Below the pieces are notes generated by a model that was not told the DNA's origin, searched no databases, and saw only the letters and a program-made list of their open reading frames with translations. A DNA stretch of 64,000 nt from Candidatus Aminicenantes bacterium (GTDB taxonomy: Bacteria; Acidobacteriota; Aminicenantia; Aminicenantales; CAVYOD01). The position numbers and the translations under genes were made by a program. This document shows, in pieces, positions 35,235 through 61,737 of the stretch; within the stretch, counting starts at the first letter, position 1, and the number at the start of each line of letters is the position of its first letter. The stretch covers positions 1,074,690 to 1,138,689 of the forward strand of contig OY969586.1 of NCBI GenBank assembly GCA_963701305.1, written 5' to 3'.

Positions 35235-35350
35235 CCGGGGACGTTTCCCACGCCGACAGCCTCGAATCTTCAAGCACGGTTCTCATGGCAGCCAAACTGG
35301 AAACCTAATGAATGGAAACCAAAGAGTGTCCCCCTGGGGAACGTCCCTCA
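35235..35350. repeat. MITE-like inverted-repeat element, copy A (arms GGGGACGTTTCCCACG ... GTGTCCCCCTGGGGAACGTCCCTCAG).
   Basis: Terminal inverted repeats related to the copies at 52387..52504 and 61617..61737. The spacer is ~70 bp. Confidence 0.5.
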
Positions 35351-35428
35351 GTTTTTGATATTATATTTTGGGTGCTGGGACTTGACAACACAAAAAATAT
35401 CCTATAAAAGGTGGACGAGGGGGAGGTT

Positions 35429-36109
35429 ATGAACGAACGGGCAAACAACCCATTTGAAGTCCCGGCAACGATCAGCGAGACAATCTACAAGTACCTCAAG
35501 AAGGCCATCATCGAGGGCGAGTTCAAGCCTAATCAAAGAGTCCAAGAGAAAGAAATCGCGGGGCTTTTCAACGTGAGCACGACGCCGGTCCGCGAATCCT
35601 TCCGCAGGCTCGCGGCCGAAAAGTTCCTGACGATCGACGCCCGGCGCGGTATCGTTGTCATTTCAACCAGCCTGGACGAGATCAAAGACCTCTTTGAAGT
35701 CGTCACCATCCTCGATGTCTTCGCTACGAAGAGGGCGATGATGAGTCTGCCTCGCGAGGCCATAAACCAGTTGAAGGAGATGACCCGCGAGCTTGGAGAA
35801 CCATACCGCGAAAAACAGATCCTCTCCTATGTCAAAAAGAACTTCGAGATTCATTTCAAGATCTGGGAGTACTGCGGAAACGAGTTCCTGAGACGGGCCC
35901 TCACGGATTACGGAGAAAAAATCGTCTTCCATATGAACCAATTCTTCCTGCTTCTTCCCGAGCAGGCGTCCTATTTTGATAGGTCCTACAGAGACCATCT
36001 GGATCTTCTCGGGGCCGTAGAAAACAAGGATGAGGTTCAGGTTGAGAGGATCCTTCTTTCCCATTGGGGAAAAAACTTTTTTGGGGAGACGGATTCAAAA
36101 AGTGAGTGA
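35429..36109 (+). CDS. GntR-family transcriptional regulator (FadR/FCD subfamily).
   Basis: N-terminal winged HTH (VQEKEIAGLFNVSTTPVRESFRRLAAEKFL) and C-terminal FCD-like helical domain. RBS GGGGGAGG. Confidence 0.8.
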   Translation: MNERANNPFEVPATISETIYKYLKKAIIEGEFKPNQRVQEKEIAGLFNVSTTPVRESFRRLAAEKFLTIDARRGIVVISTSLDEIKDLFEVVTILDVFATKRAMMSLPREAINQLKEMTRELGEPYREKQILSYVKKNFEIHFKIWEYCGNEFLRRALTDYGEKIVFHMNQFFLLLPEQASYFDRSYRDHLDLLGAVENKDEVQVERILLSHWGKNFFGETDSKSE

Positions 36110-36180
36110 GCAAGCAGCCATCCCCCTTTCTGGCGAACTTAAAGATTGACCTGGCTTTTGTTCTGGGTTAAAAAGAATCC

Positions 36181-37668
36181 GTGAAAAGACATTTGGCTCC
36201 CATCCTTGGTTTCATTTTTGTCCTTGTCTTTGCGTCCTTTGATGCTCCAGGAAGTGCATCGCAGACGGAAAGAAAGGGAGAGCCTCTGAGTGAAGCATCG
36301 AAGCAGTGGCTGGACGAGGCCGTCCCCTACATCGTCACGACCAAGGAAAAAGAGGTTTTCCTCAGCCTTCCCACAGAAGCCGATCGCGGACGGTTCATCG
36401 AGATGTTCTGGAAGAAAAGAGACCCCAACCCCCAGACCCCCGAGAATGAGTACAAAATCGAGTTTTACAAGCGTATCGCCGCGGCCAATAAGCTTTTCGG
36501 GACAGGGGGCCTCACCGGCTGGAGAACGGACAGAGGGAAGATCTATATTCTCCTCGGCCCGCCCAAGGAAATACAACGAGACTCGAATCCTCAGCCCCAA
36601 GGGGCCACTCTGGTCTCCGTTTTCCAAGGGCCCAAAGAAACCTGGCAGTATTGGGGGCTTCCCAATCCCAACCTTCCCTACAATATGGAATTTGTCTTTG
36701 TTGATAAATTTGGCACCGGAAATTACATGCTGGAAAACACCTTCCAGGTCGAAACCGGACGGAACAGACCCTTTGATTCCAGCGACCTGACCTACCAATT
36801 CGACTACCAGGAATTGTTGGCCGAGGCCCAAAAGAACCCGTTCGAGGGCTTCGACAAGCTCAAGGAGATCATCACCACCCAGGTCAGCTACACGAACATC
36901 CCCTTCAGGTCGGAGGTCTTCTATCTCAAAGGAGCCGAGAAAAAGACACTCATTCCCCTGACGCTTGAAATCTCGACGGCCGCTCTCGCCTCCAAAAAAA
37001 TCGAGGCCCGGGAATTCTTTTCGCTGAGCCTGGTCCTCAACGTCAGCAACCCGCTCGGCCAACTGGTTTTCGAAAAGAGCCGCGACCTGAATTTCCGGAA
37101 GGCCGACGGGGAGGCGGGTTCGGCACAAAACAAAGCTTTCGAAGTCGAGACGGCACTAGAACTGGAGCCCGGCCGGTACAAGCTCCATCTTCTCCTCCTT
37201 GATAACTTCAGCGGCAAAGTCGGAACAGTCCACGAAGACCTGAGTGTGCCTTCGTTCGGAGGCCAAGAACTCGCCCTGAGCTCAGTCCTCCTCTCGTCTG
37301 GGGCTGCCGAGAGTGTCCGGAACAGGGAGGAAGATCGGCCCCAAGAAAAAACCGAGATGCGGACCGGCCGTGTGTTCCATAGCGGCGAGGAGCTCAACGT
37401 CTACTTTGAGGTTTATAACCTCTCGTTGGACCAGACGACGGGCCTCAACAAGTTCAGGGCTGATTATTCCTTTCTTCAGGGAGGGGCGCCTCTGATCCAG
37501 GTGCCTCCGTCGGCAACAAAACCCAGCCCGGAGAAGGATTGCCGAGTCCGGGTTTCCTTCCGGCTGAAGAATTTCAAGCCGGGAGAATACAATTTCAGGG
37601 TCAGAGTGATCGATGAGCCGTCGGGGAAATCGGTGATCCGCGAGACCTCACTCCTTATCTTGGATTAG
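36181..37668 (+). CDS. GWxTD-domain secreted protein.
   Basis: Signal peptide and the hallmark GWRTDRGKIYILLGPP (GWxTD domain, described mainly from Acidobacteria). GTG start. Confidence 0.8.
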   Translation: MKRHLAPILGFIFVLVFASFDAPGSASQTERKGEPLSEASKQWLDEAVPYIVTTKEKEVFLSLPTEADRGRFIEMFWKKRDPNPQTPENEYKIEFYKRIAAANKLFGTGGLTGWRTDRGKIYILLGPPKEIQRDSNPQPQGATLVSVFQGPKETWQYWGLPNPNLPYNMEFVFVDKFGTGNYMLENTFQVETGRNRPFDSSDLTYQFDYQELLAEAQKNPFEGFDKLKEIITTQVSYTNIPFRSEVFYLKGAEKKTLIPLTLEISTAALASKKIEAREFFSLSLVLNVSNPLGQLVFEKSRDLNFRKADGEAGSAQNKAFEVETALELEPGRYKLHLLLLDNFSGKVGTVHEDLSVPSFGGQELALSSVLLSSGAAESVRNREEDRPQEKTEMRTGRVFHSGEELNVYFEVYNLSLDQTTGLNKFRADYSFLQGGAPLIQVPPSATKPSPEKDCRVRVSFRLKNFKPGEYNFRVRVIDEPSGKSVIRETSLLILD

Positions 37669-37944
37669 CCATTTGTTCAAAAGATTCGGGGCGGAGGTTC
37701 AAACGAAAAACAAGTTTTTGAGACCGAGCTAGATAGAAAATTCCTGACCCTCGGAGGAAAGGCCGAAACCCAAGTCGATCAGTCTTCGATGGGCCGTGCC
37801 CTCTGGCGGAAGGGCGAGGTTCGAGTGGTTGAGGTGGGTGAAAAAAACCTCAGTCCCATTCCTCGTTCTCGGCCTCTCAAGAATCTCCATTGTATGAGTC
37901 ATCAAGGGGTGCCCGATCTTGCTCAGATCGCGGCCGGGCAGCTC

Positions 37945-38730: not shown

Positions 38731-38759
38731 CGGAGCCCGGCCGACCGCCTAATCTTTTC

Positions 38760-39974: not shown

Positions 39975-40107
39975 GATGATTCCTCCATTTCAAAGCGTTG
40001 GTCCTTCCATTTTATTTAAATCGCGCCTCAATGACAAGATCATTTTTGGGTCTCCGCCGAAAAAGCGAGGCAAGAGCGGTGAGTTTTTGAAAAGGCGCAA
40101 CCGGCCT

Positions 40108-40132
40108 CTCTCCCTGACCCCTTACCCTTCAC
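40108..40132. repeat. REP-like element (CCTGACCCCTTACCC type), immediately downstream of the CocE/NonD gene stop.
   Basis: CTCTCCCTGACCCCTTACCCTTCAC. It is the reverse orientation of GTGAGGAGTCAGGGGTAAGGGGG at 41999. Confidence 0.45.
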
Positions 40133-41901
40133 TTTTTTATTATCGGAAGGACGATGGCTGAGGGGTGCTTGGCGTCGTGGTAGATCGTCTGGCGGGCGAT
40201 CCTGCGCTCGATGTCGGTCCCGATATCATTCCCGGTGTTCGTGTTCGGGAGAAACGTCGGAAAATAGCTACTCGAAACTTCGACACGGATGCGATGCCCC
40301 TTCAAAAATTGGTGCCCGGTCGCCCAGAGATCGATCTCGAACTCGTAGACCTTCCCGGTTTCGATATGCGTCGGCTTCTCGTAAGAATCACGATAGCGGG
40401 CCCTGACAATCCCGTAGGTCATCATCTGGGCCATGTCGTTGGGGTGGACATCGACGAGCACGCCCGTAAAATCAGTGTCCACGGCCGAGGAAGCGGCGTA
40501 AAGGGTCATCTTGACGGGCCCGACAACCAGCAAGTCCTCCTGGAGCGGTTCCGAGGTGAAGACGAGGACGTCGTCCCGCCTCTCGATCGGGCGCTGGTCG
40601 AGCGAGTCGCCGAGGCGGTCGGAGTCCGAGCCCGTGGGCACGGGATTCGATGGATCGTAGGTGAAATGGTCCTGCGGCTCCGTCGAAGGGGCCACAGGGC
40701 TGAGCGCCCCGTCTCCGATGAGGCTGTTGGCCCGGCCGCCGCCGTGGAGATAGTAGGGGACGAACTTGCTTTCCGGGAGAGGCCAATCGGTCGCGGTGAT
40801 CCAGTCATTCATTCCGGTAAGGAAGATCTTGATCGGCGGCGAGCTCATGATGCCCGTGTCGATCCCTTTGAGCCAGTAGTCGTACCAGCGGAGATGAAGC
40901 TCGTTGAAGCAGACTTTGGCCTTCTCGCCGAAATCGACCTCCCCGACCTTGGTCGAAGAACTGCAATGGCTCCAGGGGCCGATGAAGAGCTTTTGGCTCC
41001 TCCGGCCCTCTTCCGTCCGCCCTTTCTTGGCGACGCCCAGGTAATTCCTGATCGTCCCCATGATGTCGCTCTGGCTGTACCAGCCTCCGATATTGAGGGC
41101 CGGCACATCGATCTCCTGGAACTTATTGTGCACGCTCGTCCGCTTCCAGTACTCGTCGTAGGTCGGATGCTTGAAATAGTCCTTCCACCACGGAATGTTG
41201 AATCCGAAGTACTCGTCGGCTTTATCGAGGGGAAGGGTCATGAGGGCCCTCCTCAAGTCGGCGGACCTCAGGTTCCGCGAGGTCCGGCCCGCATCGCCCA
41301 GGGCCCAGTTGAGCCAACCCTGGTAGACTCCATCACGCATGAAACCTCCATCAAAATATGGATCGGAGGTCGCGTCGCGGGGGACCATGCACTTGAGGTA
41401 GGGATTCCGCAGGTGGGCGGAATACCACTGGATGCAGCCGCTGTAGGAACAGCCGAAGGTCCCGATCTTGCCGTTCGACCAGGGTCGGGTGCCGCACCAA
41501 TTCATCGTGTCGAAACCGTCTTCGGCGTCATAGATCTCGATGTAGAAGTCGCCCTCGGAATCCCAGCGTCCCCGGCAATCCTGGACGACAACCGCATAGC
41601 CGCGTGTGACTAAGTACCGGATAAATCCCGCATCATCCTGATGAAAGATGTCCTGAGTGCTTTTCCCGTAATAGGTTCGGGTGAGAAGGACGGGGAATTT
41701 TCCCTCGGCCTCCGGCCGGTAAACGTCAGCCGAGAGCTTGACCCCATCCCTCATCGGAATCGTCACATTGAATTCGCACTTGACCTTGAATTGAGGCTGG
41801 GAAAGGTTTGCCGTCGGCTTCGTCTCGGCGGCGAAAGTCTTCGCTGCGCAGATGAACGAAACGACAACCGCCAGGCCAAAGACCACGACTTTTTTCTTCA
41901 T
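40129..41901 (-). CDS. CocE/NonD-family hydrolase (S15 X-Pro dipeptidyl-peptidase-like), secreted.
   Basis: Signal peptide, nucleophile elbow GCSYSG, and ELHLRWYDYWLKG (family hallmark). Confidence 0.75.
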   Translation of the reverse strand: MKKKVVVFGLAVVVSFICAAKTFAAETKPTANLSQPQFKVKCEFNVTIPMRDGVKLSADVYRPEAEGKFPVLLTRTYYGKSTQDIFHQDDAGFIRYLVTRGYAVVVQDCRGRWDSEGDFYIEIYDAEDGFDTMNWCGTRPWSNGKIGTFGCSYSGCIQWYSAHLRNPYLKCMVPRDATSDPYFDGGFMRDGVYQGWLNWALGDAGRTSRNLRSADLRRALMTLPLDKADEYFGFNIPWWKDYFKHPTYDEYWKRTSVHNKFQEIDVPALNIGGWYSQSDIMGTIRNYLGVAKKGRTEEGRRSQKLFIGPWSHCSSSTKVGEVDFGEKAKVCFNELHLRWYDYWLKGIDTGIMSSPPIKIFLTGMNDWITATDWPLPESKFVPYYLHGGGRANSLIGDGALSPVAPSTEPQDHFTYDPSNPVPTGSDSDRLGDSLDQRPIERRDDVLVFTSEPLQEDLLVVGPVKMTLYAASSAVDTDFTGVLVDVHPNDMAQMMTYGIVRARYRDSYEKPTHIETGKVYEFEIDLWATGHQFLKGHRIRVEVSSSYFPTFLPNTNTGNDIGTDIERRIARQTIYHDAKHPSAIVLPIIKK

Positions 41902-41998
41902 GCGCCGACCCTCCTCATTTTCGATTCTTGTCCAGAACTCGTTAAGGGAATTATCATAGGTTATTCCCCCCGTGTCAACGCCGTTGCCAAAATAAAAG

Positions 41999-42024
41999 GT
42001 GAGGAGTCAGGGGTAAGGGGGCCA
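41999..42024. repeat. REP-like element (GTGAGGAGTCAGGGGTAAGGGGG).
   Basis: Direct-orientation copy of the dispersed motif. Confidence 0.45.
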
Positions 42025-43859: not shown

Positions 43860-43897
43860 CGCAGGCGCCGCGAAAAACTCTCTCCGCGGACGGGAGA

Positions 43898-45637: not shown

Positions 45638-45640
45638 TAA

Positions 45641-45717
45641 ATGGTAAGTGGCAAGGCGTCAGGGGTAAGACACAAAGATCAAGGAACAAGGTTAATTTTC
45701 AGTGGCTTACTCCTCAC
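45641..45717. repeat. REP-like element pair (GGTAAGTGGCAAGGCGTCAGGGGTAAGACAC ... CAGTGGCTTACTCCTCAC) between the D-aminoacylase and pylSc genes.
   Basis: Inverted GGGGTAAG / CTTACTCC arms, seen directly. Confidence 0.45.
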
Positions 45718-45771: not shown

Positions 45772-46602
45772 ATGATCGGCTGGACATCCTCTCAAAAGCA
45801 GCGCCTAAGAGAATTGAATGCCGACCCCGGCCTGCAGGAGAAAAACTTTTTGAGCTCTCGGGAACGAGACAAGGCCTTCCCTCTAGCCGAACGGCCACTC
45901 TGCCAAAGGAGCCTTCGGAAGCTACAGAAAATAAGGGAGAGCCGCAAACGGCCCAAGATCTGCAGATTGGAATCCAGGCTCATCCGCGCTCTCGTACGGG
46001 AAGGGTTCGTTCAGGTGACAACACCCATTCTGATCTCCCGGGGATCTCTGGAAAAAATGTCTATCGGAGAAAGCCACGAGCTGGCCAAGCAGGTCTTCTG
46101 GGTCGACGAGAACCGCTGCCTGCGGCCTATGCTGGCCCCTAACCTCTATTTTCTCCTGCGAGAGCTTGTCAAAGTCTGGGAGAAACCCGTTCGAATCTTC
46201 GAGGTGGGACCTTGTTTTCGCCGGGACAGCGCGGGGAAACACCACCTCAATGAATTCACGATGCTGAATCTGGTTGAACTCGGCCTCCCGGAAAAAACCA
46301 AGACGGAGAGGTTCGAGGAGCTGGCCGCTCTGGTCATGAAGACCGCCGGGATTCAGAATCATAAGTTTACCAGGCACCAGAGCGAGGTCTACGGCGAGAC
46401 AATCGACATCGATTCTACGATCGAGCTTGCTTCGGGGGTGATCGGCCCGAATCCGTTGGATTCCCGGTGGGAGGTCGTTGACAACTGGGTGGGCATCGGA
46501 GTCGGACTGGAGAGGCTGATCATGGTCAGCGAAAAGTATCAGAATATTCAGCGGGCTGGCCGGGCGCTTGTTTATCTGGACGGGATTCGGCTCAACATCT
46601 GA
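45772..46602 (+). CDS. pylS: Pyrrolysyl-tRNA synthetase catalytic (C-terminal) domain protein, PylSc.
   Basis: Near-collinear match to the PylS class II core: CLRPMLAPNLY, PVRIFEVGPCFRRDSAGKHHLNEFTMLN, VYGETIDI, ELASGVIGPNPLD, W.GIGVGLERL and the C-terminal GIRLNI (archaeal GISTNL). Confidence 0.88.
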   Translation: MIGWTSSQKQRLRELNADPGLQEKNFLSSRERDKAFPLAERPLCQRSLRKLQKIRESRKRPKICRLESRLIRALVREGFVQVTTPILISRGSLEKMSIGESHELAKQVFWVDENRCLRPMLAPNLYFLLRELVKVWEKPVRIFEVGPCFRRDSAGKHHLNEFTMLNLVELGLPEKTKTERFEELAALVMKTAGIQNHKFTRHQSEVYGETIDIDSTIELASGVIGPNPLDSRWEVVDNWVGIGVGLERLIMVSEKYQNIQRAGRALVYLDGIRLNI

Positions 46603-46639
46603 AAAGGACAAGGCCGCCCATTCATCAAGGAGGTTGCCA

Positions 46640-47287
46640 ATGGCTAAAGAAGAGATTCTCAAGGAAGCCGCAGAATCCATCATCAATCATGATAAGGCCA
46701 AGGCCGAAGAGGTTGCCAACCGCGCTTTGGCCCAGGGGCTGGACCCGCTCGAAGTCATAACGAGGGGATTCCGGGAGGGCATCATCCAGGTCGGAGATCT
46801 CTTCGGGCGAGGTGAAATCTTCATGCCGGAGCTCCTGGACGCCGCTGAGGCGATGAAAACTGCCAACACCATTCTCACGGCCGCACTGCCCGAAGGGGCG
46901 CAGCAAAAAAAGGGAAAAGTGGTTGTCGGGACGGTTCAGGGCGACATCCATGACATCGGAAAACTCCTGGTTGTTTCTCTTCTCCAGGTCAACGGATTTG
47001 ACGTTTTTGACCTCGGGCATGACGTCGAAATCGGGAAATTTATCGAAAAAGCCCTGGAAGTCGATGCCGATATCATCGGCACCAGCGCTCTCTTGACGAC
47101 GACCATGACCGGCCAAAAGACGCTCGAAGAGGAGCTGAGAAAGGGGGGCCTCAAGCCCCGCTTCAAGACGATGGTCGGAGGAGCCCCGGTGACACAGCGC
47201 TGGGCAGACCGGATCGGAGCCGATGCTTATGGAGAGGACGCGTCCGAGGCAGTCAAAAAGGCCCTCGAATTGATGGAGAAAAAGTAG
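46640..47287 (+). CDS. Methylamine-type corrinoid protein (MtbC/MtmC/MttC-like B12-binding protein).
   Basis: N-terminal helical cap, then a B12-binding Rossmann domain with the D-x-H-x-x-G box (GDIHDIGK) and a C-terminal ...ADAYGEDASEAVKKAL. Strong RBS AAGGAGG. The ORF track starts at 46568. Confidence 0.8.
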   Translation: MAKEEILKEAAESIINHDKAKAEEVANRALAQGLDPLEVITRGFREGIIQVGDLFGRGEIFMPELLDAAEAMKTANTILTAALPEGAQQKKGKVVVGTVQGDIHDIGKLLVVSLLQVNGFDVFDLGHDVEIGKFIEKALEVDADIIGTSALLTTTMTGQKTLEEELRKGGLKPRFKTMVGGAPVTQRWADRIGADAYGEDASEAVKKALELMEKK

Positions 47288-47299
47288 CTCCATAATCTC

Positions 47300-48415
47300 A
47301 TGCTTGATCAGCCCGTGTTCTCTTTAAAATTAGAAGACGTTCTGGGGAAGGCCCTGAGCCTGAGGGGCCTGACGGGTCCGGAAATCGTTTTCCTGCTGGG
47401 TCTCAAAGCAGAAGACGAGATCTGCCTCCTCTTTCAAACAGCCCAAGAGTTGAGGGAACGCTTTTTTGGCCCCAAGGTCTTCGCCTACGGATTCGTCTAC
47501 TTTTCGACCTATTGCCGCAACAATTGTCGGTTCTGTTCTTCGCGCATCTCCAATAAACAAAAATCACGATACCGGAAGACCGAATTCGAGATCAGGGAAG
47601 CGGCCTCGGGCCTGGCTGAATCGGGGGTCCACCTGATCGACCTGACCATGGGGGAAGATCCTCGTTATTACGGCCGCAGAGAAGAGTTCGAGGGCCTGGC
47701 CGAATTGGCCGCTGTCGTGAAACGCGAAACGGGCTTGCCGCTGATGATCTCTCCGGGCGCGGTCTCCGGGAAGACGCTCGGAGATTTCGCCCAAGCCGGA
47801 GTGGATTGGTACGCTTGCTACCAAGAAACGCACAACCGTCGGCTTTTCGATGAGTTGCGCCCCGGCCAGAGTTATGAGCGCCGCATGCTGAAGAAATACC
47901 GGGCCAGAGATTTGGGGATGCTGATCGAGGAGGGGATCATGGCCGGAGTCGGCGAGACCAGCCTGGATATCGCAGATTCCATCTCGGCCATGCGCGGGAT
48001 GGGCGCCCATCAGACCCGGGTCATGAGTTTCATCCCCCAGGACGGAACGCCCATGGTCGATAGACACTCTCCTCTGCGCCTCCGCGAACTTCTCATCATC
48101 GCCGTTCTTCGTCTTGCCTTTCCGGACCGGTTGATACCGGCCTCTCTGGATATCGACGGCCTGGCCTACCTGAAAGAGAGGCTCGAAGCCGGAGCCAATG
48201 TCGTCACTTCACTCATCCCACCGTCGATGGGGTTGTCCGGTGTTTCCCAGGCCAGTCTGGACATCAACGAAGGAAACAGAACGATCCAGGGAATTATCCC
48301 GGTCCTGGACGAGACCGGATTGGAGCTGGCCGACGCGGAGGACTACGGGAATTGGGTCGGAGAGGAAAGAAGGAAGCTTCGACGACAAAATCTCAACTGC
48401 GAGGCCGAGATTTGA
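47300..48415 (+). CDS. pylB: PylB, radical-SAM 3-methylornithine synthase (lysine mutase).
   Basis: CxxxCxxC radical-SAM box (YCRNNCRFC). BioB-like length of 371 aa. Position between pylS and pylC. Confidence 0.85.
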   Translation: MLDQPVFSLKLEDVLGKALSLRGLTGPEIVFLLGLKAEDEICLLFQTAQELRERFFGPKVFAYGFVYFSTYCRNNCRFCSSRISNKQKSRYRKTEFEIREAASGLAESGVHLIDLTMGEDPRYYGRREEFEGLAELAAVVKRETGLPLMISPGAVSGKTLGDFAQAGVDWYACYQETHNRRLFDELRPGQSYERRMLKKYRARDLGMLIEEGIMAGVGETSLDIADSISAMRGMGAHQTRVMSFIPQDGTPMVDRHSPLRLRELLIIAVLRLAFPDRLIPASLDIDGLAYLKERLEAGANVVTSLIPPSMGLSGVSQASLDINEGNRTIQGIIPVLDETGLELADAEDYGNWVGEERRKLRRQNLNCEAEI

Positions 48416-49578
48416 AAATCGCTGTGGTCGGGGGAAAGCTGCAGGGCACCGAGGCGACCTATCTTTCACACAAAGCGGGCTGGGAGGTCGTCCTGATCGA
48501 CAGGAGACCTACCGTGCCGGCGATGGGATTGGCCGACGAATTCCATCAAATCGACGTCGTCGACCAGGCCTCGAAGCTGCCTTCGATCCTGAAGAAAGCC
48601 GACCTTGTCATCCCGGCCGTCGAAGACGCGCTGGCGCTGCTGTCTTTAAGACTGGTGACCGAGCAAGAAAACATCCCCCTTGCCTATGACGAAGCCTCGT
48701 ATCGCGTGTCCTCATCGAAGATAAAATCCGACCGACTCTTCAAAGACCTCGACCTCGCCGCCCCTCGAGTCTGGCCTCGTTGCGACCCACCCTTTCTGGT
48801 CAAGCCATCCAGCGCGAGCGGAAGCCACGGCGTCCGCAAGATCAAAAACAGAGAGGACCTCGCTCCTTTTATTGCCGCAAGAGATACGCAGGGGGAGAGT
48901 TGGGTCGTCCAGGAATTCCTGGAGGGCCCTTCCTATTCTCTCGAAGTCTTGGGCTGTCGAAGAAAATTCGTCGACCTTCAGACGACGACAATCGAGGTGG
49001 ACACCCTCTATGATTGCAAGAGAGTCCTGGCACCGGCGGATCTTCCGCCGGTGTTGAAGGCCAATTTCGGCGACCTCGCCCGGAAGATCGCCGCCGATCT
49101 GGATCTTCGGGGGATCATGGACATCGAAGTCATCCTCCACCAGGGTCAGCTCAAGATCCTGGAGATCGATGCCCGCCTGCCGAGCCAGACCCCGACCGCA
49201 GTATATTGCTCAACGGGCATCAACATGATCGAGCTCCTCGTCGATATTTTTGCGCGGGGCTCGCTTCCCGATTCTCTCACCATCGATCAAGAAAAAGCGG
49301 TGATCTACGAGCACATCAAGGTCACGCCAGAGACGATCGAGGTCGCCGGCGAACACATCATGGCCGGGGCCGAACCTCTCAGAGTCCGGAAGGGCTTTTT
49401 TGGCGCGGACGAGGCCATCACAGATTTCAAACCGGGAAAAGCTGAGTGGGTGGCCACCTTGATCTTTGTCGGAAAAAGCCCTCAGAAGGTTCAGGCGCGG
49501 AGGGAAGCGACGATTAACGAACTCAAAAAATACTTTGGCTTAAACGTCTATAGGGACACGGTCCCCGGGAAAGATTGA
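48412..49578 (+). CDS. pylC: PylC, ATP-grasp 3-methylornithine--lysine ligase.
   Basis: The N-terminus KIAVVGGKLQGTEATYLSHKAGWEVVLIDRRP matches archaeal PylC (MKTICLIGGKLQGFEAAYLSKKAGMKVVLVDKNP). ATP-grasp core present. Probable TTG start overlapping the pylB stop (TTGA). The ORF track begins at 48352, inside pylB. Confidence 0.85.
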   Translation: MKIAVVGGKLQGTEATYLSHKAGWEVVLIDRRPTVPAMGLADEFHQIDVVDQASKLPSILKKADLVIPAVEDALALLSLRLVTEQENIPLAYDEASYRVSSSKIKSDRLFKDLDLAAPRVWPRCDPPFLVKPSSASGSHGVRKIKNREDLAPFIAARDTQGESWVVQEFLEGPSYSLEVLGCRRKFVDLQTTTIEVDTLYDCKRVLAPADLPPVLKANFGDLARKIAADLDLRGIMDIEVILHQGQLKILEIDARLPSQTPTAVYCSTGINMIELLVDIFARGSLPDSLTIDQEKAVIYEHIKVTPETIEVAGEHIMAGAEPLRVRKGFFGADEAITDFKPGKAEWVATLIFVGKSPQKVQARREATINELKKYFGLNVYRDTVPGKD

Positions 49579-49619
49579 TGCGTTCCTTCAATGATCTTAA
49601 ACGCCGGGTTGGGTAGGAA

Positions 49620-50492
49620 ATGACGCGCCTGACGACGGAATTTGTCCGTTCCATTCCAGACGATCTCCGTCTCTATGACCAGGGATTGCTCGAGAAGACC
49701 GGCCACAGCCTCCGACAGATTGCCTGCCGGGCCTCCCGAATCGAAGAATCGGAGATGGGCATGCTTCTTGGCTCAACACTCGTCGGGATCGTACCGGTGA
49801 CCTCGGGAGAAGGTAAGATCGAGGGCTTCTGTCAGGCTGTTCAGGGCATTACGAACCACCTCGGCGCCCCTTCGTTCGTGACGCGTCATCCGGACGTGGC
49901 CGGCTTGGCCGAAGCCGTCGAACGAAGAGCCGAGGTCATCTTCCTCGCCGATGATGGCAGATTCATCGCCCTGAACATGGTGTCCAGGACGGCCGTCGAC
50001 AATTCCGAAGCCACCGCCCGGGGATATCTCGCGGCCCTCGATTTCCTTGCGAAGGGGCTGAGGGGGAGGCCCGTCCTGGTCATAGGCGCAGGCCGGGTTG
50101 GGGGAGAAGCGCTTTCCGTCCTTCAAGAGTACGGAGCACGGCCGGGAGTCTATGATCCCGACGACAGGAAAACCCGGCCCCTCGAATCGGGAAGCATGAT
50201 CATCATCGAAAGAGATCTGGAGAAGGCTCTGGAAAAATATTCTCTCCTTCTCGAAGCCTCTCCGGCCTCAGCGATCATTCAGGAGAGACACATAAAGCCT
50301 GATACTATGATTGCCGCTTGCGGCATCCCGCTGGGGTTGAGCCCCGCGGCCGCGGTCCTCGTCCGGGAGCGTTTGATCCATGATCCCTTGCAGATCGGTG
50401 TGGCCGCCATGTTGACGATGGCGCTCACGAGGCGGAGGAATAAAGTGTGGGGGGTAGATCGGAAAGATCCCATAGACCCTAAATCTATGTAG
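49620..50492 (+). CDS. pylD: PylD, pyrrolysine synthase (NAD-dependent dehydrogenase).
   Basis: GIVPVTSGEGKIEGFCQAVQGITNHLGAPSFVTRHPDVAGLAEAVERRAEVIFLADDGRFIALNM is collinear with archaeal PylD (VGIVPVTSGNGIIGNFSASL...DMPDVSGYYEAVQNGAEIILMADDRTFLAHN). Rossmann GAGRVGG. A C-terminal ~20-aa extension reads into the pylT gene. Confidence 0.85.
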   Translation: MTRLTTEFVRSIPDDLRLYDQGLLEKTGHSLRQIACRASRIEESEMGMLLGSTLVGIVPVTSGEGKIEGFCQAVQGITNHLGAPSFVTRHPDVAGLAEAVERRAEVIFLADDGRFIALNMVSRTAVDNSEATARGYLAALDFLAKGLRGRPVLVIGAGRVGGEALSVLQEYGARPGVYDPDDRKTRPLESGSMIIIERDLEKALEKYSLLLEASPASAIIQERHIKPDTMIAACGIPLGLSPAAAVLVRERLIHDPLQIGVAAMLTMALTRRRNKVWGVDRKDPIDPKSM

Positions 50493-50521
50493 CCGGGTGA
50501 AACTCCCGGACTCCCCGCCAC
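50450..50521 (+). tRNA. pylT: tRNA-Pyl (pylT), anticodon CUA, with the CCA end encoded.
   Basis: Manual fold: acceptor GGGGGGT/ACTCCCC (7 bp, one G-U); one nt (A); D-stem GATC/GATC with a 5-nt loop GGAAA; one nt (C); 6-bp anticodon stem CATAGA/TCTATG; loop CCCTAAA (anticodon CTA at 50480..50482); 3-nt variable loop TAG; T-stem CCGGG/CCCGG with loop TGAAACT; discriminator G; then CCA. These are the hallmark tRNA-Pyl features (6-bp anticodon stem, short D-loop, 3-nt variable loop, single nt between acceptor and D stems). Confidence 0.78.
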
Positions 50522-50578
50522 AACGATATAGATAGCGCAGTCGGCGAAACCAAAGGTTTCGCGACCGAGGCCGAGACG

Positions 50579-50908
50579 ATGACCGAGAAGATCAAGGAAA
50601 AATACTATCGAAAGCAGACCGACTTCTTTTTGCTGCTCGACAAGATCAAGCTTTGGCCGTCCCGAAAAGGTCTTCTTCACGGTGTCAAAGTCCTCGAGAT
50701 CAAAGGATCTCTGGCTGAGGTCACCACTCATTGCGACCGGACGTTCCGAGTTCGCTACTCACGGCACAGCCGGGCCGCCCGGTGGCTGCGCAACAAATGG
50801 CACAAGGGCCCCTGCCGGGAGTGCCAGATTCCCGACTGGAAACTCGAAAAATACGAGAAGACATATTTTGACCAACATCGAGGGTCAACCCTGAGAGGCA
50901 AGGACTGA
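50579..50908 (+). CDS. pylSn: PylSn, stand-alone N-terminal tRNA-Pyl-binding domain of the split pyrrolysyl-tRNA synthetase.
   Basis: LWPSRKGLLHGVKVLEIKGSLAEVTTHCDRTFRVRYSRHSRAARWLRNKWHKGPCRECQIP aligns with the archaeal PylS N-terminus ([61 protein letters not shown]), including the zinc-ligand Cys/His positions. Confidence 0.82.
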   Translation: MTEKIKEKYYRKQTDFFLLLDKIKLWPSRKGLLHGVKVLEIKGSLAEVTTHCDRTFRVRYSRHSRAARWLRNKWHKGPCRECQIPDWKLEKYEKTYFDQHRGSTLRGKD

Positions 50909-50939
50909 TGAATCCAGAAAAAAAGGAGGTGAAAAAGAC

Positions 50940-52325
50940 ATGTCGAAAATCAGAACCAGAATGGGAGATGCGTCTGTTGTCGAGGTCACCGAGGGCCGGC
51001 TCCGGGCCGACTTAGAGGAGGGAACGAAAGATGCGGCTCAACGGGGGAAAATTCCGCCGTTGTCGCAGGATGAGCTGAACCATCTGTATGATATCTACAG
51101 CGCGCCTTCAAGAGTGGTCGGCGTGGAGCCGGGCAACGAGGTCGTCTTCACCTATGACTCCACGGTGGGCGAAATCCAGCGCACCCTTATCCCTGTGAAC
51201 AGAATCCAGTCACTGCAGATGTTCGAGCGGATGTTGGGCGCGGACACAGTCGAACTGGCTCATAATGATTACAGCTTCAAAGCCGTAAAGCCCATCATCA
51301 GCGATGAACGCACCGCCCTGGAGCAAGCCCTTTTGGTGACGACGGTGCCCGTGCTCTACGGCGCCATGCCTAACCTCGGGCTCTATAATAAGCCCGAAGG
51401 CCCAGTTCCGAATTCCTCAAAACTGATGTCCGAAGGAAAAATCAAGGAAGCCAGAGCGTCCATGGAAGAGGCCATCGAATTTGCGATCCGGGATATGGTC
51501 TATGTGGCCAGCGAACTTTACGAATCCGGCGTCGACGCGATCGATTTTGACACCACGGGCTCGGCCGGTGATCCCGATTTTTTGGCCACGCTGAAAGCCG
51601 TCGAAATCCTGAAGAAAAAGTATCCTGATATCTGCGTCGAAATGGGAATGTCCGGAGAGTTTATCCTGGGAATGCACGGCGGACTGACTTATGACGGGAC
51701 CAGGTTGGCCGGGCTCTACCCGCACCAGCAGGTGAAGCTGGCCGAGAAAGCGGGCGTCACAATCTTCGGCCCGGTCGTCAACACGAACACGAGCAAAACC
51801 TGCGCCTGGAACGCGGCCCGAGTCATCACCTTCCTGAAGACCTGTGTAGAACAATCCAACATTCCCGTGCACGCGAATATGGGGATGGGTGTGGGCGGAC
51901 TTCCTGTGACCCCCTTCGTGCCTATTGACGCGGTTTCGAGGGCATCGAAGGCCGTTGTCGAGTTGACGAGACTGGACGGGTTGTAGGTGGGCGTAGGCGA
52001 TGTTCTCGGCATGGCCGCGACTCATGCGATCGCTTCGGGCATGGGCGGGATGCGCACTGCCGGAGATCTGGTGGCGCGCATGCAAATGTCCCGGGGCCTG
52101 AGAATCCGACAAGCCAAAGAGTACGTGGCCGGCAAACTGAAAATTAGCCCCATCGATCTGGCCGATCCGTTGATCATGTCAGAAATCAGAGAGGACTTGA
52201 AGCTGGGCCTGATCAATCCTCCTCCCAACTACGCGGTTGGGATCGAGGCCAAGTTCCATGTCGCCGCGCTTTTGGGAATCGAAATCCGGAGCCTCAAACG
52301 CTTCAAGGAAAAGGCGGGCCTTTGA
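50940..52325 (+). CDS. mtbB: Dimethylamine:corrinoid methyltransferase MtbB. A single in-frame UAG is read as pyrrolysine (codon 349). The ORF track splits it at 51986.
   Basis: Both halves are collinear with archaeal MtbB: RMGDAS..., GAMPNLGLYNKPEGP, VVNTNTSKTCAWNAARVITFLK, ...[17 protein letters not shown][TAG][51 protein letters not shown] (MtbB reads ...[53 protein letters not shown]...). Both ORFs are in the same frame. RBS AAGGAGGTG. Confidence 0.85.
51984..51986 (+). other. In-frame amber (UAG) codon predicted to encode pyrrolysine in mtbB.
   Basis: A TAG in frame joins ORFs 50940..51986 and 51987..52325 exactly at the conserved Pyl position of MtbB homologs. Confidence 0.8.
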
Positions 52326-52330
52326 GAGCT

Positions 52331-52346
52331 GCTCCCCAAAGGGAGC
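52331..52346 (+). terminator. Small hairpin GCTCCC-CAAA-GGGAGC, 6 nt after the mtbB stop. Possible weak terminator with no U-tract.
   Basis: Seen directly. It lacks a T-run, so confidence is low. Confidence 0.25.
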
Positions 52347-52386
52347 TGGCTTAAAAAGACTTATTAAACGGGCAGGGGAAAAGGAT

Positions 52387-52504
52387 GGGGACGTTCCCCA
52401 AGGGGACACCCTTGGGGAACGTGAGTCTTGGATGAAATTCCGCATTGCTGTATAGTTTTGCTCGAAGGCCGAAGGGTGTCCCCGTGGGGAACGTCCCTCA
52501 GTTT
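52387..52504. repeat. MITE-like inverted-repeat element, copy B. The left arm alone forms a perfect 14-bp hairpin.
   Basis: Left GGGGACGTTCCCCAAGGGGACACCCTTGGGGAACGTGAG at 52387..52425. Right GGGTGTCCCCGTGGGGAACGTCCCTCAGTTT at 52474..52504. Related copies at 35235 and 61617. Confidence 0.55.
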
Positions 52505-52533
52505 ATTCAGATAGACCAGGAAGGAGACACAGA

Positions 52534-54921: not shown

Positions 54922-54927
54922 CCAAAT

Positions 54928-55035
54928 GGTGAGTCGTGGGCACTGAGCAGTGAGAAGAAAGGGAGCGGGAACAAGAGGACAGCGATCCGGCTTGAATTCT
55001 TTGCTCCTCACCCCTGACCCCTTACCCCTCACTGT
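54928..55035. repeat. REP-like element pair (GGTGAGTCGTGGGCACTGAGCAGTGAGAAG ... CTCCTCACCCCTGACCCCTTACCCCTCACTG) downstream of the S9 peptidase gene.
   Basis: Shares the CACTGAGC..GTGAG and CCCCTTACCCC cores with the other copies. Confidence 0.45.
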
Positions 55036-55074
55036 CCCTGTGCGAGAGACGATACCTTGAGAAGGAGGATGCTG

Positions 55075-56475: not shown

Positions 56476-56544
56476 GAATTAAAGATTACGCGGGGAAAAG
56501 GGGCGGCTCGCTCGTCCACCCGGACTCAAACATCTTTCTGTCAG

Positions 56545-57882: not shown

Positions 57883-58085
57883 GGTGTGATCCTCCCTATC
57901 GGATGTTCCCATTTCCCTTGCGGCCAATTTATAAAAAGGCGGGAAAAATGTCAACCCTCCTTTGTCCCAAAATCCGGGGACGACGATCGGGCCGCACGAA
58001 CGCTGCTCGCCGCTCACCGGCTCACTTCTTTTTTGACATCTTCCGCGACTTCCTCTATCTTTATGGGTGATGTTATCGCTACGTT

Positions 58086-59399
58086 TTGGACAATTGCCTT
58101 TTCAAATTCGTGCTCATGGCTGAAAGAGACAGCGCTCCCGCCCGGGAAACGGGTGAGCCGTTCATTCTGGCGAGGTCCGGGCACCCGATCTCAAGGCGCG
58201 ACATCGACCCGGACGCCCTCAAGATCCTCTATCGCCTCTGCCGGCTGGGCTTCACCGCCTACCTCTGCGGCGGGGCGGTCCGGGACCTGTTCCTGGGAAA
58301 GCCGCCTAAGGACTTTGACATCGTGACCGATGCCCGCCCCGGGCAGATCAAGAGATGCTTCCACAATGTTTATATCATCGGGAGGCGATTCCGCCTGGCC
58401 CACATCCACTTCCAAGGAGGGAAGACGATCGAGGTGGCGACCTTCCGGAGGAACCCCGATGTCTGCGACGAGAACTCGCCCGATGCCAAGATCGATCCCA
58501 AAAACGCCTACGGGACCCCGCGCGAGGACGCTTTCCGCCGCGACATCACGATCAACGCCCTGTTCTATGATATCGCTACGGCCTCAGTCATTGATTATAC
58601 TGGGGGCATCGAGGATCTGGCCTGCCGCCTGGTCCGGGTTATAGGCGATCCCGCTGAACGCTTCACGGAGGATCCCGTCCGCATCTGGCGTGTCGTGAGA
58701 CACGCCGCTCGGCTGCAATTCGGGATCGAGGAGGCGACCGAGCGCGCGATTCCTCAGCTCAGACATCTGCTGGCGGAATGTTCCGGAGCGCGACTATACG
58801 AGGAGCTGAACAAGGACCTCGCCTACGAAAAGACACGTCCCGTCATTGAAGCCATGCGTCGATACCATCTTATGAGGTTTGTCCTCGGCCAGCCCGGCGA
58901 GGACTACGAGACTCATCCGGACCTCTTCTCCAGGGTTTGTTCGCTACTTGAGATCCAAGATAAGGCAAAAGCGTCGGGATACGTCCCCTCCCCGGTCGAA
59001 ATGTATGCCGTGGTCTTCTGGCCTTGGATGGAACCGCTCTTCACCGGAGCGCGCGGTGATATGCACGTGACCCTGAAGAACGCTCTGGCGACGGCAGGGA
59101 CAAAAGCGACCCTGCCCCGGAACCTACGAGCCGATGTCATCCAGACCATGATCATCGCCGGAAGAATGATCCAGGCCCTTCGCTCCGGCCAGATGCGCTG
59201 GTCCTTGAAGCAGCGTCCTCATTACGCCCCAGCCTCCCGGCTGCTTTTCCTGATCGAGAAGGGACGGCCGCAGGAAGCCGGGGAGTCTTTTGAGAGCCTT
59301 TTCCGGCAGGCCTTCCCTTCGGCTCCGACCAGGCGACCGAGACGGCGAAGGCGGCACCGGCGCTTCCGGAATGCTCCGACGGGGCCGGCCGCCCCTTAA
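58086..59399 (+). CDS. pcnB: Poly(A) polymerase / tRNA nucleotidyltransferase family protein (PcnB-like) with an Arg-rich C-terminal tail.
   Basis: GGAVRDLFLGKPPKDFDIVTDARP (head domain G-G-x-V-R-D and D-x-D). RFRLAHIHFQ. Basic tail RRPRRRRRHRRFR. Confidence 0.7.
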   Translation: MDNCLFKFVLMAERDSAPARETGEPFILARSGHPISRRDIDPDALKILYRLCRLGFTAYLCGGAVRDLFLGKPPKDFDIVTDARPGQIKRCFHNVYIIGRRFRLAHIHFQGGKTIEVATFRRNPDVCDENSPDAKIDPKNAYGTPREDAFRRDITINALFYDIATASVIDYTGGIEDLACRLVRVIGDPAERFTEDPVRIWRVVRHAARLQFGIEEATERAIPQLRHLLAECSGARLYEELNKDLAYEKTRPVIEAMRRYHLMRFVLGQPGEDYETHPDLFSRVCSLLEIQDKAKASGYVPSPVEMYAVVFWPWMEPLFTGARGDMHVTLKNALATAGTKATLPRNLRADVIQTMIIAGRMIQALRSGQMRWSLKQRPHYAPASRLLFLIEKGRPQEAGESFESLFRQAFPSAPTRRPRRRRRHRRFRNAPTGPAAP

Positions 59400-59495
59400 G
59401 AAAAGTTCGGGGGGGAAGTCGGTGGTTTCGTTGACCCTGTCTTTTTCTTGTGTTATAAGCGAGGAAGATAGCGCGAAAAAGAGAGGAACAAACCC

Positions 59496-60869
59496 ATGAA
59501 AGAAAAAAATAAGATTTCCCGCCGGACATTCCTGGGGACTTCCGCGACTGCGGCAGCCGCATTCATGGTCGTCCCCCGCCATGTGATCGGCGCCATCGGA
59601 GACAAGAAGGCGCCCAGCGATACCCTGAACATCGGTTGCGTTGGTGTCGGCGGCAAAGGATTTTCGGACACCCAGAGCGTCAGCACCGAAAACATCGTGG
59701 CTTTGTGCGACGTCGATGACATCATGATGGCTGATTTCCTGAAGTCGGATGAGCATCCCCCCGAGAAAAAAGTAAAGTACGAGAAGGCCAATAAATATCG
59801 TGATTTTCGGCTGATGCTGGATAAAGAAAAGAGCCTCGACGCGATCACGGTGAGTGTGCCGGACCATAATCACGCCGCGATTGCCATGGCGGCCATCAAA
59901 CTGGGCAAACATGTCTTTGTCCAGAAACCCTTGACCCATACGGTGAAAGAAGCTCGGCTATTGCTGCAGGCGGCGAGGCAGGCCAACGTCGTCACTCAGA
60001 TGGGGAATCAGGGGCACGCCAAGGAAGGAGCGCGTCTTATCAACGAGTGGATCTGGGCGGGCGCGATCGGCAGTGTCGGCGAAGTCCACGCCTGGACCGA
60101 CCGGCCGATCTGGCCACAAGGCGGAATCGATGCCCCCCCCGAGGTCCCCTCTGTGCCATCCACTCTCGATTGGGACGTTTGGATCGGCCCGGCGCCATTC
60201 CGTCCTTACCATCCCCTTATTCACCCTTTCAAATGGCGCGGTCTTTGGGATTTCGGCACCGGCTCACTCGGCGACATGGGCGCTCACATTCTTGACCAGC
60301 CTTTTTGGGCCCTGAAGTTAGGCTATCCGACGAGCGTGCAGGCCAGCTCTTCCGTTTTCAGCAAAGACTATTATCCTCTGGCGGAAATCGTGACTTACGA
60401 ATTCCCCGCCAGGGGCCCAATGGGGCCGGTCAAGCTGACGTGGTACGACGGAGGATTGATGCCACCCAGGCCGCCGGAACTCGAAGACGGCAGGATGATG
60501 GGTGATGAAGGCGGCGGCGTTCTTTTCCTCGGCGACAAAGGCGCCCTGATGTGCAGTGTCTATGGAGAGAACCCGCGTTTGATCCCCGAGTCCAGGATGC
60601 AGGAATACAAGAGGCCGGAGAAGACCATCCCCCGATCCCCAGGGATCCATGAGGAATGGATTGAGGCGATTAAGAAAGGGACAAAATCAACGACCGACTT
60701 CGAGTACTCCGCGCCCCTGACAGAGGCCATGCTCCTGGCCAATATCGCCGTCCGAATGAAAGAGTCGAACACGAAACTCCTCTGGAATGGAGAGAAGTTG
60801 GAGTTCACCAACCTCCCCGAGGCTAATAAGTATCTCCACTGTGAATATCGTCCTGGCTGGAGTTTGTGA
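59496..60869 (+). CDS. Gfo/Idh/MocA-family NAD(P) oxidoreductase with a Tat signal.
   Basis: SRRTFLGTSATAAAAFMVVP twin-arginine signal. Rossmann GCVGVGGKG. Family-typical length. Confidence 0.8.
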   Translation: MKEKNKISRRTFLGTSATAAAAFMVVPRHVIGAIGDKKAPSDTLNIGCVGVGGKGFSDTQSVSTENIVALCDVDDIMMADFLKSDEHPPEKKVKYEKANKYRDFRLMLDKEKSLDAITVSVPDHNHAAIAMAAIKLGKHVFVQKPLTHTVKEARLLLQAARQANVVTQMGNQGHAKEGARLINEWIWAGAIGSVGEVHAWTDRPIWPQGGIDAPPEVPSVPSTLDWDVWIGPAPFRPYHPLIHPFKWRGLWDFGTGSLGDMGAHILDQPFWALKLGYPTSVQASSSVFSKDYYPLAEIVTYEFPARGPMGPVKLTWYDGGLMPPRPPELEDGRMMGDEGGGVLFLGDKGALMCSVYGENPRLIPESRMQEYKRPEKTIPRSPGIHEEWIEAIKKGTKSTTDFEYSAPLTEAMLLANIAVRMKESNTKLLWNGEKLEFTNLPEANKYLHCEYRPGWSL

Positions 60870-61648
60870 GGGGGAAGAAAACGAAGCAGGTCCTGGTCAT
60901 GGCTATCTTATCTTCGACCATCGCATTGGTGGTTTCGGCCGAGAAGCAATGGCAGGTCCACGATCCTAGCAGGCCCCTCCCCCCGGTCGTTAATCCAGGT
61001 CCCGCCGGCCCTTCGATCCAGCCGCCGTCAGATGCCGCCATCCTCTTCGACGGCCGGGATCTTTCCCAGTGGACGGACGCCAAAGGCCATCCGGCAAAAT
61101 GGAAGGTTGAGAACGGTTATGCGGAGGTCGTGGACAAAACGGGGAGCATCCGCACGATCAAAGGATTCGGAGACTGTCAGCTCCATGTCGAATGGAGGGC
61201 GCCTCTCCCGGCCATCGGCGAAGGACAGGATAGAGGCAACAGTGGCGTTTTTTTGATGGACACTTACGAGATCCAGGTTCTGGATTGTCACAACAATAAG
61301 ACCTATGCCGATGGAATGGCGGCAGCCGTCTATGGCCAATATCCGCCCCTGGTGAATGCCTGCCGGCCGCCCGGAGAATGGCAGACCTATGATATCGTGT
61401 TCCACCGGCCACGTTTTGACCAGGAAGGGAAACTCCTGAAGCCTGCCCGGATGACCGTCTTCCACAATTGCGTTCTGGTTCAGGACGATGTTGCACTCAC
61501 CGGGCCGACGGCCCACAAAGCCCGGCCGCCTTACAAAGCCCATCCTGACAAGATGCCGCTTTCCCTTCAGGATCACGGCCACCCCGTCCGCTACCGGAAC
61601 ATCTGGATTCGTGAGCTGGGGGACGTTCCCCAAGGGGACACCCTTTAG
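60866..61648 (+). CDS. DUF1080 (3-keto-disaccharide hydrolase, LamG-like) domain protein, secreted.
   Basis: Signal peptide. ILFDGRDLSQWTD, HVEWR, GNSGVFLM and C-terminal YRNIWIREL are typical DUF1080 features. The start overlaps the upstream gene's stop (ATGA). Confidence 0.7.
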   Translation: MRGKKTKQVLVMAILSSTIALVVSAEKQWQVHDPSRPLPPVVNPGPAGPSIQPPSDAAILFDGRDLSQWTDAKGHPAKWKVENGYAEVVDKTGSIRTIKGFGDCQLHVEWRAPLPAIGEGQDRGNSGVFLMDTYEIQVLDCHNNKTYADGMAAAVYGQYPPLVNACRPPGEWQTYDIVFHRPRFDQEGKLLKPARMTVFHNCVLVQDDVALTGPTAHKARPPYKAHPDKMPLSLQDHGHPVRYRNIWIRELGDVPQGDTL

Positions 61649-61737
61649 TCCATAAAGGAAGAACAGCGGGGTGGTAAGCCTCATAATACGACATTCAGGG
61701 ATCAAGGGTGTCGCCTAGGGGAACGTCCCCCAGTGAG
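61617..61737. repeat. MITE-like inverted-repeat element, copy C. Its left arm supplies the last 9 codons of the DUF1080 gene.
   Basis: Left GGGGGACGTTCCCCAAGGGGACACCC at 61617..61642. Right GGGTGTCGCCTAGGGGAACGTCCCCCAGTGAG at 61706..61737. Confidence 0.55.

Follow-up and report, generated by a model that had tools for sequence, protein, structure and literature searches.

Three short inverted-repeat loci in a 64,000-nt stretch of the Candidatus Aminicenantes bacterium assembly GCA_963701305.1 (contig OY969586.1, positions 1,074,690 to 1,138,689; the whole stretch is called the window here) are probably old copies of a REP/REPIN-like, non-autonomous repeat family of the TIRYT type, whose arms would be recognised by a Y1/HUH transposase. 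Each locus (copies A, B and C) consists of two arms of about 30 nt that face each other across a short spacer. Elements of this sort are an already known kind of genomic parasite, encountered here in poorly studied phyla, and three sides of the family are notable: one arm recurs under several phylum labels, the arms are constrained while the spacers drift, and short duplications at the arm edges have a fixed junction. An earlier note on the window had described the loci as three copies of a MITE-like element (miniature inverted-repeat transposable element) or a family of regulator-binding palindromes.

An exact Hamming scan of the window with the 22-nt core GGGACGTTCCCCAAGGGGACAC, together with direct reading of the sequence, finds six arms in three convergent pairs and no others (Table 1). 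The conserved unit is about 30 nt long and reads (AACTGR)GGGGACGTTCCCCAAGGGGACACCCTT, which can also be written (AACTGR)G-GGGACGTTCCCCAAGGGGACAC-CCTT. None of this is expected by chance: with up to three mismatches the 23-mer has five window matches against 0.00 expected from 100 shuffles, and with up to one mismatch the 12-mer GGGGAACGTCCC has six against 0.69 expected by shuffling. The three inverted-repeat pairs of the earlier note are thus real, and its non-conserved spacer is borne out as well, as the window copies can be aligned with each other over the arms only. Measured from core to core (22 nt each) the spacers are 66 nt long, and from arm to arm (30 nt each) 58 nt. Copy A has a beta-lactamase-family gene on the minus strand to one side and a plus-strand GntR regulator gene to the other, in divergent arrangement; copy B lies in the co-directional gap that separates mtbB, with its in-frame UAG, from a DPP-IV/S9 peptidase gene on the same (plus) strand; and copy C lies in a convergent gap where it overlaps the 3' end of a DUF1080 gene (60866-61648). 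The description of the element as always intergenic, a point examined for the window copies only, holds for A and B and fails for C. The perfect 14-bp hairpin reported for the left-arm region of copy B is present (ACGTTCCCCAAGGG at 52391-52404, loop GACA, and its reverse complement CCCTTGGGGAACGT at 52409-52422) and arises because a truncated, inverted extra arm, GGGGAACGT, abuts the left arm. At Rfam gathering thresholds there is no match at the three loci, and the sole match in the window is PYLIS_2.

The same repeat is found in many other genomes. A scan of one genome per species with the query GGGACGTTCCCCNNGGNGACAC places the 22-nt core in at least 96 genome stretches, the taxon names of the carriers being their depositors' labels. 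Among the matches listed, the carriers comprise 6 Aminicenantes and 19 Omnitrophota metagenome-assembled genomes (MAGs), four “Eubacteriales” and two “Planctomycetia” third-party MAGs, and one Desulfaltia, one Syntrophaceae and one unclassified MAG; three further single matches in G+C-rich coding DNA (two Streptomyces and one deltaproteobacterium) look like chance. Host G+C content runs from about 40% (Omnitrophota) to 56–61% (window, CAVYOD01 and Desulfaltia). Contig CAVYOD010000014.1 of an Aminicenantes MAG (the sister genome CAVYOD01) is approximately 90% identical to the window and syntenic with it; in this genome, loci L084 and L034 (L numbers are our handles for loci) correspond to the regions of copies A and C. 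Protein neighbours of the window are likewise named Aminicenantes; an exact look-up of the window DPP-IV protein gave no match. Arms occur in at least 21 separate 8-kb blocks of CAVYOD01, and at least 30 other assemblies also carry them. No match to the arm was found in a viral contig collection.

Throughout the family the arm is the conserved part: conservation starts abruptly at G-GGGACG and stops at ...GACAC-CCTT, and further inward nothing is common. A single arm is predicted to fold into two adjacent 5-bp hairpins, GGGGA(CGT)TCCCC and AAGGG(GACA)CCCTT (-7.9 kcal/mol, z -2.1), and whole copies into long hairpins (z -6.4 for copy B and -7.4 for copy C). Geometry was counted over arms with up to three mismatches, in pairs within 400 nt, among the matches listed. 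Convergent pairs number 52, direct pairs one and divergent pairs none; spacer lengths have modes at 58 and at 65–67 nt; and approximately 45 arms have no partner at all, solo arms and pairs being about equally frequent. Aminicenantes pairs are polar, with an outer AACTG(G/A) tag on one arm, and in CAVYOD01 almost every solo arm is tagged as well. In the window, copies A and B have one tagged arm each, and copy C has CTGG on both arms, its orientation not being assignable.

A classical MITE would be an internally deleted DDE insertion sequence, moved by cut and paste through its terminal inverted repeats and bounded by target-site duplications. Elements of about 115 nt with terminal inverted repeats of 26–30 nt and many copies do resemble one, and the several pairs that have a common spacer in one Omnitrophota MAG (L015, L036, L057, L059 and L069) look like a young MITE burst. 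However, in 38 pairs compared with permuted flank pairings, no offset or length shows the target-site duplications that the earlier note had proposed to look for; the inverted repeat in these pairs usually reaches just one base past the core. Moreover, the frequency of solo arms, the unrelated interiors of the Aminicenantes copies, and the fact that the sole gene recurrently enclosed by arms encodes a Y1/HUH transposase, with no DDE family recurring near arms, all speak against it. Known bacterial MITEs (Correia, ERIC, RUP) are similarly small and intergenic, with terminal inverted repeats and a long-hairpin fold, but differ in having target-site duplications, conserved interiors and an origin from DDE insertion sequences. 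Hence, a classical MITE is very improbable, and what survives of the MITE-like description is its spirit, namely a mobile miniature element in multiple copies whose arms flank a transposase gene elsewhere.

That gene was found in three Omnitrophota loci (L020, L054 and L081), in each of which a convergent arm pair encloses a reading frame for a protein of about 195 aa, with no tnpB beside it. The protein matches Pfam Y1_Tnp over residues 13–124 (53.5 bits, where 23 is the cut-off). When 15 homologs are combined in a profile, the best solved-structure match is E. coli TnpA_REP (4er8, E 6e-4), with weaker matches to the IS608 and ISDra2 TnpA proteins (E 5e-3 to 1e-2), and the residues H60, H62 and Y120-IER-N124-P125 (HUH and Y---NP) are invariant or nearly so in the 15 homologs. 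More than 800 proteins of the collection searched belong to the transposase family. This arm type lies on both sides of the gene in 24 of the 80 best metagenome loci, where one arm typically precedes the gene by about 100 nt and the other follows it by about 8 nt. A de novo search recovers a flanking inverted repeat of at least 17/20 in 54 of the 70 loci with enough flank, for a chance that we estimate at roughly 7e-4 per locus. The arm sequence varies with the protein clade (GGGGACGTTCCCC..., GGGGACGTCCTCC..., GGGGACGTGTCA..., GTACCGGGTACC... and others). Clustering of open reading frames beside arms gave orthologous or paralogous loci and the Y1 gene, with no other recurring gene family; response-regulator genes beside arms in L052 and L088 look coincidental. 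A cognate insertion sequence with the same ends, as suggested in the earlier note, thus has a counterpart in the Y1 gene between arms in Omnitrophota and metagenomes; it has none in the window or in the Aminicenantes DNA examined.

The most GARP-rich homologs trace to a host of 59% G+C with the variant arm GGGACGTTCCCCTTGGGGACAG. Four metagenome contigs from four samples (L182–L185) carry an identical 196-aa Y1 transposase, P0038, flanked by this variant arm; it adjoins the same helix-turn-helix (HTH)/cupin gene on both contigs that are long enough, and one host contig has 59% G+C. The setting of P0038 agrees better with a stable locus in the chromosome than with an insertion sequence that is still hopping. 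A possible similarity was also seen between some Omnitrophota solo-arm interiors and the region upstream of the transposase gene.

Among described systems, the closest in kind are the RAYT-like genes flanked by inverted repeats other than GTAG REPs that Di Nocera et al. 2013 named TIRYTs or TIRtrons, whose inverted repeats in many cases contain GGGGWSAS and make up moderately abundant genomic families of singles, dimers and clusters (PMC3733652). TIRYTs largely coincide with subclass 2.1 of Quentin et al. 2018, in which Y---NP is the class-2 signature (PMC6006769). The present family has GGGGACAC at core positions 15–22 of the arm, which fits GGGG[AT][CG]A[CG] (motif from PMC3733652 and PMC6006769), and also matches TIRYTs in its Y1 gene between non-GTAG inverted repeats, in the HuH and Y---NP residues, and in forming a multi-copy genomic repeat family, here of solo arms and pairs. 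Unlike in those studies, the hosts are uncultivated Omnitrophota, Aminicenantes and others that were not sampled there, one 22-nt arm is common to several phylum labels, and pairs favour certain spacer lengths.

REPINs of Pseudomonas and Enterobacteria are alike in that short palindromic units are inverted around a spacer to a total of approximately 100–120 nt (Bertels and Rainey 2011, PMC3116915; PMC3337134), are non-autonomous, occur as singlets beside doublets, leave no target-site duplication and have a Y1 gene flanked by the same units. The REPIN unit is, however, one long imperfect palindrome, whereas the unit here is a double 5-bp hairpin. In addition, REPIN-RAYT systems are described as mostly vertically inherited, whereas the arms here cross phylum labels. 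The E. coli REP/BIME enzyme TnpA_REP (4ER8; PMC3479197) offers the nearest solved structure and recognises a folded single-stranded repeat, but the sequence relation is remote and the E. coli enzyme requires GTAG and cuts beside the hairpin. The CGTC-tagged REPs, which have an unpaired terminal CGTC, a stem of 8–9 bp opening with A/T pairs and a CCA tail (PMC3733652), were also considered and rejected: here CGT/ACG lies in the loop of a 5-bp G/C stem, and the CCA tail is missing.

At some arms, a short exact tandem duplication runs across the outer boundary. In a first test such duplications were present at 11 of 146 arms, compared with 0.4% of random positions, and across all loci, including those with variant arms, there are 17 at 474 arm starts, with periods of 11–25 nt (examples in Table 1). 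The repeated unit ends exactly after GGGGACG in 10 of the 17 and three more are explained by rotation ambiguity, which makes the junction GGGGACG^T consistent in 13 of 17; the left end varies, reaching 5–10 nt into the unique flank. No microhomology that could explain slippage was found at the duplications. The window itself has no edge duplications. We take this junction as the likely mark of recurrent breakage at one point, between G7 and T8 within the first hairpin loop.

The same junction could be taken to favour an IS200/IS605-type miniature (PATE), that is, a deletion derivative whose subterminal hairpins differ between the left and right ends and which inserts 3' of a fixed short target, as GGGGACG is readable as such a target or cleavage sequence. 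The enzyme superfamily (Y1/HUH), the hairpin-forming ends and the lack of target-site duplications would fit too. However, both ends of the present element are the same sequence inverted rather than a distinct left and right, the protein is nearer to TnpA_REP than to the IS608 and ISDra2 enzymes and has the class-2 Y---NP signature (PMC6006769), and no tnpB accompanies the gene. Complete IS200/IS605 elements (IS608, ISDra2), which share the Y1/HUH chemistry, the hairpins at the ends and the lack of target-site duplications, are set further apart by asymmetric ends, a fixed tetra- or pentanucleotide target, an autonomous and multi-copy nature and, often, tnpB. Of all the explanations weighed here, we regard this one as extremely improbable.

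The history of the copies in the lineage of the window points to old, inherited elements with conserved arms. Copy C is at the same place in three genomes (window, L034 and L180), and in the three pairwise comparisons its arms are identical at 174 of 180 positions (97%), while its 58-nt spacer has 74–79% identity. The neighbouring gene shows 75–86% identity at third codon positions and 93–97% at first and second positions. As the arms are this similar and the spacer is near the third-position rate, the arms are constrained or homogenised and the spacer is roughly neutral. The remaining copies have fared differently. Copy A decays in different ways in two sister genomes, with five mismatches in the left arm in the window, and two in the left and five in the right arm in L084. 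In the 91%-identical ortholog of copy B (L177 783-1121, matching window 52326-52533), an unrelated, G+C-rich palindromic sequence, GGGGCCCCGGCAACGG...CGATTTTTGC..., takes the place of the interior, and all that is left of the element is its outer ends, a left GGGG and a right TAAATGGGGACGTATTAAATGGGAACGTCCCTCAG (GGGG ... GGGAACGTCCCTCAG).

The arm of copy C supplies the last nine residues and the stop codon of the DUF1080 gene, as the earlier note had recognised (Table 1). DUF1080 homologs end in ...IWIRxLE, and the proteins of the window and L034 in ...LGDVPQGDTL. L180 keeps the ancestral stop, ...CTGGAATAA, followed by 8 nt and then CTGG-GGGACG; the window and L034 have therefore lost 17 nt between two CTGG repeats, a loss that fused the reading frame to the arm. 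The arm-supplied stop is thus a secondary microdeletion and not an insertion into the gene. At the other side, the window remains homologous to L034 and L180 precisely up to position 61733, where copy C has its outer end (blastn with L034), and the downstream flanks are unrelated. In CAVYOD01, the paralogous regions L003 1571-1681 and L087 4913-5022 have the same left flank and arms, and their homology again stops at the outer end of the element; between the two, the 66-nt spacer is inverted while the left-arm variant stays in place, which suggests inversion or recombination between arms. With homology ending at element edges and a spacer inverted, the elements mark rearrangement and inversion breakpoints.

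Conservation of the arms could also reflect a function for the host, instead of or after mobility, as bidirectional terminators, mRNA-stabilising hairpins or sites for nucleoid or regulatory proteins. Such roles have been reported for classical REPs (PMC3733652). The arms are conserved like codon positions 1 and 2, and the spacers like position 3, in a lineage in which no transposase came to light; the long hairpins formed by pairs are of very high stability; the outer tag yields ...CGTCCCYCAGTTT; and the ends of the copy B arms are picked up by a simple terminator scan. On the other hand, the T-runs are short and weak, and the constraint is not universal, as the uneven decay of copy A indicates. 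The divergent promoter region, co-directional gap and convergent gap in which the window copies lie have no common regulatory logic, and a mobile element accounts more readily than a lineage-specific regulator for identical arms in hosts of 40–61% G+C that bear several different phylum labels. On these grounds we do not retain regulator-binding palindromes as the primary explanation. Retention of the arms for a host function, in place of mobility or following it, is unlikely, and it would in any case be compatible with a mobile origin; a secondary role of this kind would help to account for conserved arms in genomes without a visible transposase.

Hence, we favour a TIRYT-type family, and its operation may be pictured as follows. 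The functional unit would be the arm of about 30 nt, which as a single strand would form the two adjacent 5-bp hairpins and which occurs alone or in convergent orientation, approximately 58–67 nt apart. The arms would serve as recognition sites of the RAYT/TIRYT-type Y1/HUH transposase of about 195 aa, whose own gene lies between arms of this kind, arranged in the same geometry. If it works like TnpA_REP and the IS200/IS605 enzymes, the transposase may bind the folded arm on single-stranded DNA, cut it, possibly near GGGGACG^T, and rejoin it without target duplication, thereby moving arms or arm pairs in trans. The Aminicenantes copies would then be vertically inherited relics, in which selection for recognition or homogenisation keeps the arms intact and the spacers drift. 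A more specific version combines several of these elements: the arm and its Y1 transposase would have spread horizontally among Omnitrophota, Aminicenantes, Desulfobacterota-like and Planctomycetes-like hosts, the enzyme would nick the loop of the first hairpin at GGGGACG^T in the manner of a rolling-circle Rep and unlike TnpA_REP or IS608 TnpA, and the Aminicenantes arms, without a resident transposase, would be under purifying selection and co-opted by the host. As a whole, this combination seems quite unlikely.

Several observations weigh against a TIRYT-type family with Y1-driven mobility. No Y1 gene was found by tblastn in the 64-kb window, nor by tblastn, hidden Markov model search and tblastx in approximately 170 kb of CAVYOD01 and in the loci of other Aminicenantes assemblies, and the names of cluster members gave no Aminicenantes transposase either. 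The best NCBIfam model for the Omnitrophota protein, REP-associated tyrosine transposase NF047646, scores 63.8 bits, under its cut-off of 80, which also separates the protein from the REPIN-associated RAYTs. In the 195-aa protein Pfam detects no HTH or Bac_DnaA_C-like C-terminal domain of the sort described for most TIRYTs, with a divergent small helix-turn-helix being possible, and the protein is short for that class. The GTAG tetranucleotide of classical REPs is not in the arms, which start (AACTGR)GGGGACG. The spacers of different Aminicenantes copies, unlike those of REPINs, are not recognisably related, so there is no sign of recent whole-pair copying in this lineage. Finally, no clean pair of occupied and empty orthologous sites was recovered. 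Two candidate empty sites, both without the element, were set aside because gene order differs as well: L178 for copy B, which has another upstream gene, and L181 for copy C, which has another downstream gene.

Work on REP/REPIN-RAYT systems has been confined almost entirely to Proteobacteria, and the TIRYT class is scarcely named in the literature searched. The family adds a large, well-defined example in uncultivated phyla, a clear co-variation of arm and enzyme clade, a natural contrast of constrained arms with neutral spacers, and a duplication junction that names a testable candidate cleavage site. The arms also flag rearrangement breakpoints and altered gene ends, such as the DUF1080 tail, which matters for annotation and for the assembly of MAGs from these groups.

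Table 1 Coordinates of repeat arms, duplication examples and other features (positions are those of the window unless a locus is named).
Feature	Position	Strand	Remark
Copy A, whole	35237-35353		left arm degenerate
Copy A, left arm GGGGACGTTTCCCACGCCGACAGCCTC	35237..35263	+	degenerate; 5 mismatches to 22-nt core
Copy A, left core	35238	+	5 mismatches of 22
Copy A, right arm with polarity tag	35322..35353	-	minus strand AACTGA-GGGACGTTCCCCAGGGGGACAC-TCTT; 1 mismatch
Copy A, right core	35326	-	1 mismatch
Copy B, whole	52387-52503		
Copy B, left arm GGGGACGTTCCCCAAGGGGACACCCTT	52387..52413	+	core matched exactly
Copy B, left core	52388	+	0 mismatches
Copy B, truncated extra inverted arm GGGGAACGT	52414..52422	-	abuts left arm; direct reading
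Copy B, right arm with AACTGA tag	52472..52503	-	1 mismatch
Copy B, right core	52476	-	1 mismatch
Copy C, whole	61616-61733		
Copy C, left arm with CTGG extension	61616..61645	+	encodes GDVPQGDTL, runs into TAG 61646-61648
Copy C, left core	61620	+	0 mismatches
Copy C, right arm with CTGG extension	61704..61733	-	2 mismatches
Copy C, right core	61708	-	2 mismatches
Edge duplications of 11-16 nt (5-10 nt unique flank + GGGGACG)	L095 (arm 3266-3287), L085 1611, L023 109, L001 7910		
Edge duplications, further examples	L006 161, L069 6094, L157, L105		
Class-II aminoacyl-tRNA synthetase-like gene, possibly pylS	45772-46602		Pfam: generic class-II synthetase domains only
B12-binding corrinoid protein	46568-47287		
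Radical-SAM gene, possibly pylB	47300-48415		
pylC	48352-49578		
pylD	49620-50492		
tRNA-Pyl	50449-50520		anticodon CUA
mtbB (dimethylamine methyltransferase), split by in-frame UAG	UAG 51987-51989		Rfam PYLIS_2 match 51984-52083
Third motif, + sense	11095-11116, 13546-13567, 40112-40133, 55012-55033		
Third motif, inverted sense	13429-13453, 41993-42017, 45645-45669		

Other features of the window were seen in passing. Upstream of copy B, positions 45772-52325 hold a pyrrolysine cassette in an Aminicenantes-like genome (Table 1); a text search of the literature found no link between pyrrolysine use and Aminicenantes. Where window positions 59387-59428 correspond to L034 834-4073, the sister genome has approximately 3.2 kb extra, by insertion there or deletion here.

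Two further repeat families are present. A second, unrelated palindromic family has inverted arms of 37–49 nt, GTTCAATGTTGCGCCGGAGGCCACCC..., about 63 nt apart, at window positions 25966-26114 and 34066-34165 and also at L084 1933-2202 and L039 2141-2344. Its extent differs between genomes, the sister genome being approximately 150 nt longer at the site that matches window 34046-34066. A third, short motif, CCCTGACCCCTTACCC(T/C)TCACT, occurs with its complement near gene ends (Table 1).

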